Positions 5,132-59,133 of a stretch of DNA of 64,000 bases are shown piece after piece. Position numbers and translations under genes: made by a program. The stretch covers positions 1-64,000 of IMG/VR virus record IMGVR_UViG_3300020469_000011; one strand, written 5' to 3'. A model generated the notes under the pieces. The model saw nothing but the letters and a program-made list of their open reading frames with translations, ran no database searches and was not told where the DNA came from. This DNA comes from a virus. Position 1 is the stretch's first letter. Each line of letters opens with the position of its first letter.

Positions 5132-5520
5132 TATGGATTTAGTTCATTCTTTTCATTAATATAATGAGCAAACCAAGAATCTGAATTAAAACTTTTATCA
5201 CATATATAAACATCAAAATGTGGTTTAGTTCCTACAGATAGACCATGATATTTACATCCCCAACTTTTTAACTGTTCTCTTGTTTTATCTTTCCAATCTA
5301 TATTAGACCTTGCACCTCTTGCAGTCCAATAATGAATTGTATGTCCTTCATCATATAGTTTGTTGATATGTTTTATTCTTTCCATAAAAGGTTTAGCTTT
5401 CATGTAATCTTTTTTATTTTCTACGTTTTCTCCTGCTCTTTTGCGAGAAAGTTGCATTTCTATATCTTCATCGGAAATTTCACTACAGATAGTTCCATCT
5501 ATATCTACATAAATGATCAT
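5131..5520 (-). CDS. HAD-superfamily hydrolase
   Basis: IYVDIDGTIC motif I, WTARG motif II, KP..DVYICDK. Confidence 0.8.
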   Translation of the reverse strand: MIIYVDIDGTICSEISDEDIEMQLSRKRAGENVENKKDYMKAKPFMERIKHINKLYDEGHTIHYWTARGARSNIDWKDKTREQLKSWGCKYHGLSVGTKPHFDVYICDKSFNSDSWFAHYINEKNELNP

Positions 5521-5894
5521 AATTTTTTCTCACGATAATTTTTGATTGCAGCTTTTATTGCATCTTCAGCTAAAACAGAACAGTGGATTTTAACTGGCGG
5601 AAGAGACAATTCTTCAACAATATCACTATTTTTAATCTCAAGTGCTTCATCAACAGTCTTGCCTTTAACCCATTCTGTCGCAAGACTAGAACTAGCAATA
5701 GCACTACCGCAACCGAATGTTTTAAATTTAGCATCAATTATTTTATCATCTTCAACTTTTATTTGAAGTTTCATAACATCACCACACTCAGGTGCTCCAA
5801 CTAAACCTGTACCCACATCTTCATCATCCTTTGGAAGACTTCCAACATTTTGTGGATTATTGTAATGATCTAATACTTCTTTACTATAAGACAT
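5517..5894 (-). CDS. iscU: Fe-S cluster scaffold IscU
   Basis: YSKEVLDHY.NP.NVG, GAPECGDVMKLQ, FKTFGCGSAIASSS, LPPVKIHCS. Confidence 0.97.
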   Translation of the reverse strand: MSYSKEVLDHYNNPQNVGSLPKDDEDVGTGLVGAPECGDVMKLQIKVEDDKIIDAKFKTFGCGSAIASSSLATEWVKGKTVDEALEIKNSDIVEELSLPPVKIHCSVLAEDAIKAAIKNYREKKL

Positions 5895-41852: not shown

Positions 41853-41928
41853 TCCCTGATAGCTCAGTTGGTAGAGCAAAGGACTGTTAATCCTTTGGTC
41901 CCTGGTTCGAGTCCAGGTCAGGGAGCCA
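41853..41928 (+). tRNA. tRNA-Asn(GTT)
   Basis: Cloverleaf; anticodon loop CTGTTAA; GGTTCGAGTCC T-arm; encoded CCA. Confidence 0.95.
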
Positions 41929-41935
41929 AAATTTA

Positions 41936-42012
41936 GGCCTGTTAGTTCAGTTGGTTAGAACGCTTGCCTGTCACGCAAGAGGTCACCGGTTCAAGTCCGG
42001 TACAGGTCGCCA
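41936..42012 (+). tRNA. tRNA-Asp(GTC)
   Basis: Cloverleaf; loop CTGTCAC; GGTTCAAGTCC; encoded CCA. Confidence 0.95.
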
Positions 42013-43629: not shown

Positions 43630-43704
43630 GTGCCTATAGTTAAACGGATATAACAGAAGACTTCTAATCTTCCATTCTAGGTTCGATTCCTAGTGGGCGC
43701 ACCA
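43630..43704 (+). tRNA. tRNA-Arg(TCT)
   Basis: Cloverleaf; loop CTTCTAA; GGTTCGATTCC; encoded CCA. Confidence 0.95.
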
Positions 43705-55331: not shown

Positions 55332-58300
55332 ATGAGTAATATTCCTCTTCTATTATTGAGCAACACTTTTGGTGAGTGGTTAATAACAATTAACAATGTC
55401 ATAGCAGAAAATAATAATTCTTCTGCGAATGGTGTATCAAATACATTGACAAGATTTGATGCAAATGGCTCACTTACATTCAATGAATTAAACTCCAACA
55501 ATGTTCAGTTAAAAGTCGGTCCTGCGATTAATGAAGTTAGAACTGATTTTCAACAAAACAATCACACTTCTGTAGCAACTACAGGAGCTATTCTTGAATT
55601 GTTAACTGGAAGTAATAGTATTCTTCCATTGAGGCTTGAGTCATTGAGGTTTGGTACTTCATTTGATTCAGTAAATGCAATATCCAAAAGTTTTAGTGCA
55701 AGTGACCCAAATACATTATTAACATCAAATGCTATTTACAATTTCTTAACGGGCACAAGAACATTAAGTTTTGACCTTAGATCTGATTCTATTCGTATTG
55801 GTTCAGGACCTGTTATAACTGAAATAGCTACTACATTTTCTTCTATTGATAATTCAACTGTACCTACAACAAGTGCTGTAAGCAACTACTTATCAAGTGC
55901 AGCAACCATTAATTTGGACCTAGCATCTTTAAGATTGAATACGGGACAATCTGTAAATAAAATTGCAAATAACTTTAATAGTGTTGACGACACTACACTA
56001 GTGACTGCAAAGGCTGTTTATAATTTGGTTGGTGGAATTGATAACGATATTGGAACTATTGAAGGTAGAAGTATAGATTTGGGTTCTACTTATGTTGTAA
56101 ATAATTTTGCTATTGATTTCAGCACAATAACTCACTATTCTTTACCCACTGTAACTGCGGTAAAAGACTTTATAACAAGTGGAAACTATAGTCTAGATGT
56201 ATCTGCTAATTCTTTAACAGCAACTAATTTACATACAAATGCTATCTCTATAGATGGTCATACTATTAATAGCATAAGAACAGACTTTAATTTACTTTCA
56301 AATGATGAGTTAGTTACTTCAAATGCTGTATATAATCTATTAACTGATGGAAATGTAGTTTTAAATTCTCAATTTTCAAATACACATACGTCTAGTATAT
56401 CTATAAATGGATATTCAATTAATGCTGTAGCAAATGTAATAAATGCTGCAAACACAAATAATCATACTTTAGGAACAACACAAGGAATTTATGACCTTTT
56501 ATCTGGAGGTGTAACTACTGTTCCTCCACTTCCAATTTCTGCTAATTCATTCTCATTCCCAGGTGGTACTGGAAATACATCAGTAAATTCTATTGCTACA
56601 AATTTCTCTTCTATAAATGATAATAGTTTAGTCACAGCAAATGCAGTTTATAATTTATTAACTGATGGTTCTGTTAATTTAGCTGTAGATTTTGATTCAA
56701 TCACTTTAGTGAATGGAGTAACTGTAAATGGAATCGCTACTGCTATTACAACTGCTAATACGAATGATTATACTCTAGCCACTACAAAAGCAGTTCATGA
56801 CACTATAGGAAGTGGTGTAGGCAACATCACAGTTGCACAAGTAGAAACAAATGACTTGTACTCATTTCAAGTAAGTTTAGGAAATTATGCATTTGGTAGG
56901 TCAACTGCTCAAAATGCTGCATCAGCAGGAACAGCAACTTTAGCTACTCCTTGGGTATATACTTCTACATTAGAAGCTTATGATCAAAAGAATGCAAGTG
57001 GTACGGGTATTATATTAAGTGCAAATTCAAGTTCACCTGCAGGAGAAACAGTTGCTGCAAATAACATTGCATTTTTTACAGGCGGATCAATACGTCTAAA
57101 GGTTAATAATACAGAGATAGATGCTGGATCTAGTATTGTTAAAACAACAGCAACTCCTTCAGCATCAAGTCATTTGATAACAAAAGCCTTTGCAGATGCT
57201 ACTTACAATCCTGTTGGAAGCACAGGTACTAGAATTGCAAACAATGCGATTAATGTTGATATAGATGCTAATAATATTGTATTCACAGGTAATAGTGAGC
57301 CAGCAACTAATGACACTTATACTTTAGGAAATTCAACAAATAGATTTAAAGATTTATATCTAAGTGGTAGTGCATTTATTTCAGATGATTCTGCAATTAC
57401 TTCTTCAAATGGAAGTATACAGTTTAATGCTAATAACCAAACAATAGAAGTTCTAGGAAATGGTTCTTCTGTAACTGGTAAATTAACTTTAAATTGTGAG
57501 ATGAATTCACACGGACAAACTATTGTACCACAACCACATAGTGCAGCCGTTACAAACACTTTAACTTTACCAGCAAACGGCAGTCAAGAAATTGTTGGTA
57601 CAATTGCTACACAAACATTAACAAATAAAACATTAGGTCAAACAAGTTTAAGTGGAGATTTATTACCAACTGCTGATTCAACATATAATCTAGGATCACC
57701 TGCAAATAAATTCAAAGATTTATATCTGTCATCTTCAACACTATGGTTGGGTGATTTAATAAAATTAGACACTTCATCTGGTGTAGCTAAGTTCTTAAAG
57801 AGAAATCCAAGTAGCTTACCTTATATATTTTCTATTATTGGTGGTGATAGTGCTAATGCAATATCACATGTTAATACTACATTTAGTTATAGTCCTGCTA
57901 GAACTGCATTATCTGAATTAACATCAAACGATTTATTAAGTTATTTACAAACATTTGCTTCTTTTGGAAATGCACAATTGGGAACTTTGTTTCCACCAGA
58001 AAAAGATGCTACTGGCAACACAAGTACTTATTACAATGTTAATGATTACTCTGATATTATAGCTCAAGAAAGACCAGGAACAATTGCTTCGGATGTATCG
58101 GAAGCCTCTACATATGCTCTTGATTACGGAGTATCAAGTACAGCCACCTTTAAAAGACCTGATATAGATGTTACACTATCTTTAACCAATGTTTCTGATT
58201 TAGAAGGAATGACGGTACATGTAACTGCTTTTGTTGTACAAAACACAACTCCACATACAATGTCAGGTATATTAATTAATGGAAATAGTGCGAATCAGTT

Positions 58301-58412
58301 TAATATTTCTGGTGTGAATACCATGAATTCCACTGCTAATACTATAAACACATTTGATATAAAAGCAGTTTACTTTGAAAATGAATGGAATGCTACTTGT
58401 ATTGTAGGATAA
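55332..58412 (+). CDS. long tail fibre / receptor-binding structural protein
   Basis: N-terminal LSNTFGEW...N; S/T/N-rich internal repeats; TYTLG...RFKDLYLS motifs. Confidence 0.75.
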   Translation: MSNIPLLLLSNTFGEWLITINNVIAENNNSSANGVSNTLTRFDANGSLTFNELNSNNVQLKVGPAINEVRTDFQQNNHTSVATTGAILELLTGSNSILPLRLESLRFGTSFDSVNAISKSFSASDPNTLLTSNAIYNFLTGTRTLSFDLRSDSIRIGSGPVITEIATTFSSIDNSTVPTTSAVSNYLSSAATINLDLASLRLNTGQSVNKIANNFNSVDDTTLVTAKAVYNLVGGIDNDIGTIEGRSIDLGSTYVVNNFAIDFSTITHYSLPTVTAVKDFITSGNYSLDVSANSLTATNLHTNAISIDGHTINSIRTDFNLLSNDELVTSNAVYNLLTDGNVVLNSQFSNTHTSSISINGYSINAVANVINAANTNNHTLGTTQGIYDLLSGGVTTVPPLPISANSFSFPGGTGNTSVNSIATNFSSINDNSLVTANAVYNLLTDGSVNLAVDFDSITLVNGVTVNGIATAITTANTNDYTLATTKAVHDTIGSGVGNITVAQVETNDLYSFQVSLGNYAFGRSTAQNAASAGTATLATPWVYTSTLEAYDQKNASGTGIILSANSSSPAGETVAANNIAFFTGGSIRLKVNNTEIDAGSSIVKTTATPSASSHLITKAFADATYNPVGSTGTRIANNAINVDIDANNIVFTGNSEPATNDTYTLGNSTNRFKDLYLSGSAFISDDSAITSSNGSIQFNANNQTIEVLGNGSSVTGKLTLNCEMNSHGQTIVPQPHSAAVTNTLTLPANGSQEIVGTIATQTLTNKTLGQTSLSGDLLPTADSTYNLGSPANKFKDLYLSSSTLWLGDLIKLDTSSGVAKFLKRNPSSLPYIFSIIGGDSANAISHVNTTFSYSPARTALSELTSNDLLSYLQTFASFGNAQLGTLFPPEKDATGNTSTYYNVNDYSDIIAQERPGTIASDVSEASTYALDYGVSSTATFKRPDIDVTLSLTNVSDLEGMTVHVTAFVVQNTTPHTMSGILINGNSANQFNISGVNTMNSTANTINTFDIKAVYFENEWNATCIVG

Positions 58413-58985
58413 ATGAAACTAGCACTATTAGCTTCAGGAAATGGAACTAATGTTGAGGTTTTATTAAAAGAAAAAAAGTTAGGTAAATTATCTTTAGTAA
58501 ATTGGAAACTTTTAATATGTGATAATCCAGATGCTTTTGTACTAGAAAGAGTAAAAGTTTTTAATCTACCTAGCTTTATAGTAGAACCAAAAAACTTTGA
58601 AAATAAAGAAACTTACGAAACTTGTATTCACCAAAAATTAATTGACTTTGAAATAGACGGAATAGTTCTTGCAGGCTATATGCGTCTAATTGGACCTACG
58701 TTATTAAAATATTGGAAAAATAAAATAATAAATGTTCATCCCTCACTTCTACCTTCCTTTCCTGGTAGAAATTCAGTATCAGATGCCATAAAAAGTAAAT
58801 TTTATACAAGTGGATGTACAGTACATTTTGTTGATGAGGGTATAGATACAGGACCTATAATTGCACAAAAAACTGTATTAATTGAAAAACATGATAACCA
58901 AGAAAGTTTATCTGAAAAGATACATAAAGCGGAACATGAATTACTTCCTAAAGTAATTTGTCAATGGAGTAATAGCAAATTTTAG
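58413..58985 (+). CDS. purN: GAR transformylase
   Basis: LASGNGTN, LAGYMRLI, INVHPSLLPSFPG, GCTVHFVDEGIDTGPII. Confidence 0.96.
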   Translation: MKLALLASGNGTNVEVLLKEKKLGKLSLVNWKLLICDNPDAFVLERVKVFNLPSFIVEPKNFENKETYETCIHQKLIDFEIDGIVLAGYMRLIGPTLLKYWKNKIINVHPSLLPSFPGRNSVSDAIKSKFYTSGCTVHFVDEGIDTGPIIAQKTVLIEKHDNQESLSEKIHKAEHELLPKVICQWSNSKF

Positions 58986-58989
58986 GCAC

Positions 58990-59023
58990 AAAAAAAGCCG
59001 AGGTTTTTACACCTCGGCTTTTT
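58990..59023. terminator. bidirectional intrinsic terminator
   Basis: AAAAAAGCCGAGGT-TTTTAC-ACCTCGGCTTTTT between convergent genes. Confidence 0.88.
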
Positions 59024-59031
59024 CTATTTAC

Positions 59032-59121
59032 TCAGCATTCACAACTTTCATCATTACAGTCTAAACATTTACAATTACCACATTTACAATCCTCACATTT
59101 ACAGTTTGGATTATTACACAT
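59032..59121 (-). CDS. metallothionein-like Cys-rich micropeptide (29 aa; not in ORF track)
   Basis: MCNNPNCKCEDCKCGNCKCLDCNDESCEC*, AAGGAG RBS 5 nt upstream, followed by a terminator. Confidence 0.8.
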   Translation of the reverse strand: MCNNPNCKCEDCKCGNCKCLDCNDESCEC

Positions 59122-59133
59122 GGAATCTCCTTA

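Follow-up and report, generated by a model that had tools for sequence, protein, structure and literature searches.

A cysteine-rich micro-gene of marine phages predicted to encode a metallothionein-like peptide

Among the described metallothioneins, the Cu-metallothionein of Neurospora crassa has about 25 residues and 7 Cys, and SmtA has approximately 55 residues, contains His as well as Cys, and adopts a zinc-finger-like fold; marine Synechococcus reportedly uses BmtA in zinc handling. Metallothioneins also grow by duplication, and CxC spacing is typical of Zn, Cd, or Cu thiolate clusters and less so of the ligands of 4Fe-4S clusters. PAAR tips, like related spike apexes, contain a Zn or Fe ion. 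The trace metals Zn, Co, Cd, Cu, and Fe limit or poison the dominant microbes of the ocean. Auxiliary genes by which phages adjust the metabolism of their hosts are also known.

We analyzed a 64,000-nt stretch of viral DNA (the window), which constitutes the first 64 kb of a 146.5-kb IMG/VR record with a GC content of 29.6% and a completeness of 68%. The UvsW protein of the record is approximately 43% identical to those of pelagimyophages and cyanomyophages, and the source is a T4-like marine phage. An earlier note on this DNA had proposed that a hidden metallothionein-like micro-gene lies behind a gp8 baseplate gene. The features of this locus and of related loci are listed in Table 1.

Table 1. 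Features of the micro-gene locus, of the window, and of related loci (coordinates without a locus prefix refer to the window)
Feature	Coordinates	Strand	Basis or remark
10-Cys micro-gene, MCNNPxCKC family	59032..59121, stop included	-	Cys-count outlier, homologues
Shine-Dalgarno (SD) AAGGAG	59127..59132	-	5-nt spacer to micro-gene ATG
gp8-like baseplate wedge gene, 806 aa	59134..61554	-	upstream cistron of micro-gene
Bidirectional intrinsic terminator	58990..59023	.	folding energy, conserved in relatives
purN-like phosphoribosylglycinamide formyltransferase auxiliary gene	58413..58985	+	PF00551 E 2.7e-49, phrog_9240
15-nt tandem repeat, 2.6 copies	59065..59103	-	encodes CKCxx units; covers 39/90 nt
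NifU/IscU-like Fe-S cluster assembly gene	5517-5894	-	PF01592, E 6.6e-55
Three phage tRNA genes: Asn(GTT), Asp(GTC), Arg(TCT)	41853-42012 and 43630-43704	+	
Gene for a 1026-aa protein	55332-58412	+	weak match to PF12219 endosialidase C-terminal chaperone (E 4e-4)
gp5-peptide-PAAR example	L294:1661-3010 (gp5), L294:3024-3116 (peptide)		PAAR next
PAAR-peptide example	L282:4604-4939 (PAAR), L282:5106-5183 (peptide)		
NifU-linked Cys-peptide loci, 15-16-aa and 37-aa subtypes	L149:745-1165; L271:1313-1861		
H-NOX gene	L310:703-1260	+	haem-NO-binding, PF07700, E 7.5e-46
Locus of the EYHG-containing subtype	L334:2133-3905 and neighbours	-	33-aa peptide

Our analysis reproduced the earlier reading of the ORF as written. 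The minus-strand frame at positions 59032-59121 runs from an ATG through 29 codons to a TGA, and the encoded 29-residue peptide contains 10 Cys (34%) at positions 2, 7, 9, 12, 14, 17, 19, 22, 27, and 29, laid out as Cys 2, three CKCxx units, and a terminal C-x4-C-x-C. Phe, Trp, Tyr, and His are all absent, and the net charge is approximately -3. The AAGGAG ribosome-binding site was also present, with a spacer of 5 nt to the ATG. The 806-aa gene upstream matched the Pfam family Phage-Gp8 (PF09215, E 5e-8) and the baseplate wedge family phrog_438 (E 9e-65); its 3' end is a tandem TAA TAA, and the micro-gene starts 12 nt further on. This gap fits co-transcription, which the note had suggested from the location of the ORF as the last gene before a bidirectional terminator, a location that we likewise observed. 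The terminator hairpin (58992-59023, 17-bp stem, with a T run to 58990; -28.3 kcal/mol, z -7.6) lies 13 nt past the micro-gene stop. With an A run at one edge and a T run at the opposite edge, it can end transcription from both directions, that of the baseplate operon as well as that of the purN-like gene. Because the purN-like gene converges on the terminator, the micro-gene has no co-directional gene downstream. No enrichment of the T4 late-promoter motif TATAAATA was found across the window. The three phage tRNA genes of the window do not include a tRNA-Cys, and the 1026-aa protein, whose domain match is weak, probably forms a tail fibre that carries a self-cleaving chaperone.

The Cys count of the micro-gene was an outlier. 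Among the 603 ATG ORFs of 20-45 aa in the 146.5-kb record, the runner-up had 5 Cys, and none of 200 genome simulations under a second-order Markov model produced 10 Cys, the maximum being 8, reached once. A chance origin of the 10-Cys ORF is excluded. Since the 15-nt tandem repeat underlies part of the Cys pattern, the Cys codons are not independent events, and duplication of the 15-nt unit produced part of the CKCxx pattern. The ORF could also be regarded as a non-functional by-product of this repeat in the intergenic spacer, as the period-15 repeat spans 39 of the 90 nt and comparison with related phages shows the element as a clean indel. However, the frame, start codon, SD, and cysteines are intact in at least nine genome contexts, the variation in the family is biased to third codon positions, and the Markov simulations fall short of 10 Cys. 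Such a by-product is highly improbable, and the pattern of conservation already contradicts it.

The N-terminus was searched for with a degenerate DNA pattern (MCNNP, then N, D, E, or K, then CKC). The pattern matched 48 IMG/VR viral contigs and 78 metagenome contigs, and its single match in the genomes of 185,579 prokaryote species fell in a 28-kb MAG fragment. The MCNNPxCKC family is carried almost only by marine phages. The matches gave 45 distinct peptides, all but one of which had 19-44 residues and 7-10 Cys. We defined the family by M-C-N-N-P-x-C-K-C followed by C-x-C-x2-C-x-C, a length of 19-44 residues, an SD of its own, and location on a phage contig; the window copy has each of these features, and its core aligns without gaps. 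The conserved core comprises seven cysteines (C-x4-C-x-C-x2-C-x-C-x2-C-x-C), to which the window copy adds three more. In a 36-member alignment, C12, C14, and C17 were invariant and C19 was at least 90% conserved, all of them outside the search pattern. The segregating sites at the first, second, and third codon positions numbered 6/4/16, 2/1/8, and 1/1/7 in three length classes or subtypes. The Cys columns mixed TGT and TGC, and their sole residue change was one C-terminal Cys-to-Tyr variant. An SD-like motif was located at the right distance in 55 of the 58 distinct upstream regions. The Cys outlier, the homologues, and the third-position variation bear out the earlier view of a real small gene rather than an accidental frame. 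The micro-gene is phage-borne, its cysteines are under selection, and it moves between genome positions; we infer that it is translated.

Among 1.84 billion representative proteins, a HMMER profile search picked out 24 further cluster representatives, 23 of which were 29-58 aa long and contained the family core, MCNNE variants included. None of the called family proteins was named or had a Pfam domain, and most copies had fewer than 30 codons. The same search retrieved a 213-aa protein (P0006) with six tandem CxCxxCxCxxCxC units and a C-terminal hydrophobic anchor, a membrane-tethered multi-domain relative of the micro-peptides. Arrays of the CKCED/CKCDP type were also observed, at internal or N-terminal positions, in larger phage proteins (L022 and L023 [542 aa], L199 [637 aa], L172 [669 aa], and L256, L260, and L160 [approximately 80 aa]), so the motif is also a module of bigger proteins.

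Other searches returned little. The locus had no megablast match among GenBank phages, and when the 29-, 37-, and 44-aa peptides were compared with the same phages by tblastn, one chance match or none appeared, although the low-complexity filter may hide true ones. A scan of five cultured Kyanoviridae (HTVC008M, Mosig, S-WAM1, P-TIM40, and Bellamy) for CxCxxCxCxxCxC revealed no clean member; the lone match was off-frame and aromatic-rich, and a reversed control gave as many. Nothing was found in a word-indexed protein search with the 41-aa read-through of L001, the locus closest to that of the window, ORFs so short being rarely called. The output of a fully degenerate Cys pattern was mostly off-frame low-complexity sequence.

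A gp8-based search of viral contigs yielded 14 related loci, and the arrangement of gp8 followed by the peptide gene was found in the window and in seven loci. The earlier note had named a lack of conservation in related phages as evidence against its proposal; we found instead that the gp8-linked homologues in L001, L315, L328, L369, L329, and L311 retain every cysteine. In L001, whose gp8 is 63% identical, a 30-codon homologue occupies the same place and keeps all ten cysteines; between the two copies, 7 of the 10 non-Cys residues in the second half were replaced, and two Cys codons were changed synonymously. The copy behind gp8 in L311 encodes 20 aa and that in L329 is a variant of 29 or more aa. 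Lengths of 20, 29, and 30 aa fit the gain or loss of 15-nt repeat units. Read-through from gp8 into the micro-gene as a fusion was rejected: two in-frame stops intervene, and the spacer is 12 nt here versus 13 nt in L001, so the frame relation is not conserved.

Alignment of the junction between gp8 and the terminator showed that the SD and ORF together form a clean indel of approximately 100 nt. Four loci (L002, L003, L013, and L014; gp8 56% identical) share this gp8 end and terminator yet lack the ORF, which indicates that the micro-gene is dispensable, and no CKC motif was found elsewhere in five fragments of the ORF-less relatives (19-41% complete). The link with gp8 described in the note thus did not extend beyond one small lineage, outside which the nearest gp8 relatives lack the ORF; the family as a whole is found in at least eight further contexts. 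An obligatory partnership with gp8 is ruled out by the varied gene contexts of the family.

The micro-gene family is mobile and occurs in at least nine gene contexts. The order in the window lineage is gp8, peptide, and terminator. A 31-aa peptide gene lies between a gp5 hub/lysozyme gene and an abutting PAAR gene in about 20 loci, and a 19- or 26-aa peptide gene follows a PAAR gene after approximately 161 nt in about 30 loci. On about 50 marine phage contigs, 31-, 26-, and 19-aa members were located directly between or beside PAAR, the spike-tip gene, and gp5, the cell-puncturing hub; this adjacency recurs and might be functional. In other contigs, a 37-38-aa peptide with an acidic-hydrophobic tail follows NifU/IscU, or the peptide gene stands between a cytidylyltransferase gene and an SNase nuclease gene that is followed by NifU, between a gene without an assigned function and H-NOX, or after a small-terminase-like gene with the terminase further on. 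The remaining contexts are a CHASE2-cyclase neighbourhood and several neighbourhoods composed only of genes of no assigned function. The H-NOX gene directly follows a 22-aa member on a marine metagenome contig and is an unusual phage gene if that contig is viral. In L334, a CHASE2-adenylate/guanylate cyclase and a class-3 lipase flank a 33-aa EYHG-containing subtype; the short contigs of this subtype may be cellular rather than viral.

A looser scan revealed a second subtype of 15-16 residues that starts with MCKCKDCKC and overlaps the end of a NifU gene. Two distinct peptide subtypes directly follow NifU/IscU and two lie beside PAAR, both of these neighbours being metal-handling. Proximity to NifU and proximity to spike or baseplate genes are thus both recurrent, and neither is general. 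Such heterogeneous contexts indicate no single partner or pathway.

The recurrence beside NifU raises the possibility that the peptide is a thiol, redox, or Fe-S helper, rather than a general metallothionein, that carries sulfur, iron, or a small Fe-S cluster or protects an IscU-type scaffold. Both the 37-38-aa MCNNPE type and the 15-aa MCKCKDCKC type follow or overlap NifU/IscU-like genes, and the NifU genes of the two subtypes are 72% identical even though the downstream genes are unrelated. The L393 peptide gene is two genes from NifU, and the phage of the window has a NifU-like gene of its own, 73% identical to those that precede Cys peptides in other phages. However, the window micro-gene is located 53 kb from this gene, which is not followed by any Cys-rich ORF, most contexts of the family contain no Fe-S gene, and the CxC spacing fits Zn, Cd, and Cu thiolate clusters better than 4Fe-4S clusters. 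We consider a helper of this kind rather unlikely.

The three baseplate contexts (gp8-peptide, gp5-peptide-PAAR, and PAAR-peptide) would also agree with an accessory of the baseplate or spike, either a metal donor or a small structural part of the tail tip (gp5/PAAR/gp8), in which case packaging in the virion is possible. This role seems quite improbable: gp5 is located at approximately 84.8 kb of the record, 25 kb from the micro-gene, and no PAAR domain was detected in the 146.5-kb record, which is 68% complete. Moreover, other members adjoin NifU, nuclease, H-NOX, small-terminase, or functionally unassigned genes, and close gp8 relatives do without the gene. Recurrent neighbours are what speaks for both the Fe-S/IscU helper and the spike-tip or baseplate donor or component, each of which keeps a small probability.

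The micro-gene could also be regarded as a cysteine-sensing regulatory short ORF, in which ribosome stalling at Cys codons would control a downstream gene. In mycobacteria, cysteine-dense leaderless short ORFs are proven attenuators (bioRxiv 10.1101/834739), and in the window a hairpin directly follows the micro-gene. Like the micro-gene, the mycobacterial polycysteine short ORFs are unannotated, very short, and cysteine-dense; they are first cistrons that stall ribosomes and regulate cysteine-metabolism genes (bioRxiv 10.1101/834739). In contrast, the micro-gene is a last cistron that has its own SD and is not leaderless, and it encodes a conserved peptide. It does not lie upstream of a co-directional gene as an attenuator short ORF does, because the gene that follows runs in the opposite direction and uses the same terminator. 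In addition, selection acts on spaced CxC/CxxC and the N-terminal MCNNP, not on a run of Cys codons, and the neighbours are not cysteine-metabolism genes. A regulatory short ORF is contradicted at the window locus by this gene order, and we give it almost no credence.

It is similarly hard to regard the product as a precursor peptide that is cross-linked by enzymes, whether RiPP-like or with radical-SAM thioethers. No radical-SAM domain (PF04055) was matched in the 146.5-kb, 68%-complete record, and no cognate maturase was found nearby there; the examined neighbours of related loci included no radical-SAM gene, and a peptide of 19-29 aa has no leader/core architecture. These observations make a cross-linked precursor very unlikely.

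The metallothionein-like label in the earlier note held for composition and not for membership of a curated family. The peptide is small, approximately one-third Cys, and aromatic-free, with CxC/CxxC motifs and polar or charged spacers, the hallmarks of metallothionein composition. None of the curated metallothionein families (PF00131, PF02069, PF01439, PF12749, PF02067, and others) reached its gathering cut-off, and the sole Pfam model to register was metallothionein PF12749 (9 bits, E 1.8, versus a cut-off of 22), which registered for only 2 of 28 family members (E 1.8-3.5). An NCBIfam search of the peptide gave no match, and a PDB profile search gave 0 matches at E <=10. Among the nearest look-alikes in the ESM Atlas, the only named cluster was a metallothionein, with a score of 0.77 that serves only as a lead. 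The AlphaFold model, calculated without metal, had no secondary structure (pLDDT 62), as would be expected of a fold that depends on metal, and is neutral on metal binding. The likeness to metallothioneins may be only compositional, and redox buffers, Fe-S ligands, and substrates of cross-linking enzymes also occur among Cys-rich peptides.

On balance, the composition leads us to favour, with a modest degree of confidence, the reading of the micro-gene as an accessory gene for a metallothionein-like metal-thiolate peptide. Metal binding is predicted from composition only, and the bound metal and any physiological role are putative. As the last cistron of the baseplate-wedge transcript, the micro-gene would be expressed late and made with the baseplate proteins; translation would start from its own SD, and the transcript would end at the hairpin directly downstream. 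The product would be a cytoplasmic, acidic, 29-residue peptide that, like a metallothionein, most likely folds around a metal-thiolate cluster. If metallothionein domains of 9-11 Cys are a guide, the cluster might contain approximately three Zn(II) or Cd(II) ions or several Cu(I) ions. During infection, the peptide could retain or buffer a trace metal, pass it on, or sequester a toxic one.

In a narrower and doubtful version, the MCNNPxCKC peptides would be dedicated phage metallochaperones for the PAAR/gp5 spike tip, the baseplate, and the IscU scaffold, loading Zn, Fe, or Cu so that virions can be built in ocean hosts starved of trace metals. Such a role would explain why the gene repeatedly lands beside PAAR/gp5, baseplate, and IscU genes.

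If the metallothionein-like reading is true, the family represents a new kind of auxiliary gene, widespread and phage-borne, that acts on metal economy, and few known metal-binding proteins are as small as its products. Genes this short systematically escape gene callers and domain databases. Chemical synthesis of the peptides is within reach, which makes the central claim directly testable.

A comparison with phage morons concerns the gene rather than its product. The micro-gene shares with morons the clean presence or absence of approximately 100 nt between a conserved gene and a terminator, and insertion sites that vary by phage; unlike morons, it lacks its own promoter at this locus and depends on transcription of the operon. 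For the product, the Cu-metallothionein of N. crassa is comparable in size class, in a Cys content of approximately one-third, in CxC/CxxC motifs, in the absence of aromatics, and in a seven-Cys core. The phage peptide differs from it in spacing and in the MCNNPxCKC start, has no detectable homology to it, and is only predicted to bind metal. The vertebrate beta and alpha domains (PF00131), PF12749, and PF02067 share CKC-x2-CKC motifs and 9-11 Cys per cluster unit with the phage peptide, and Lys, Asp, Glu, and Asn stand between the cysteines in vertebrate and eukaryotic metallothioneins and in the phage peptide alike. Unlike these families, the phage family consists of a single domain of 19-44 residues, scores far under the cut-off, and has no significant PDB match. 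Like SmtA/BmtA (PF02069) and MymT, the phage peptide, whose metal binding is predicted, is a cytoplasmic, Cys-rich product of the prokaryote world; unlike SmtA, it lacks His and matches no Pfam or NCBIfam family. A full-text literature search, mostly without subscription journals, returned no description of such a phage gene. We classify the peptide as one of metallothionein-like design outside every described family; to the extent of the literature searched, its product class is new for phages.
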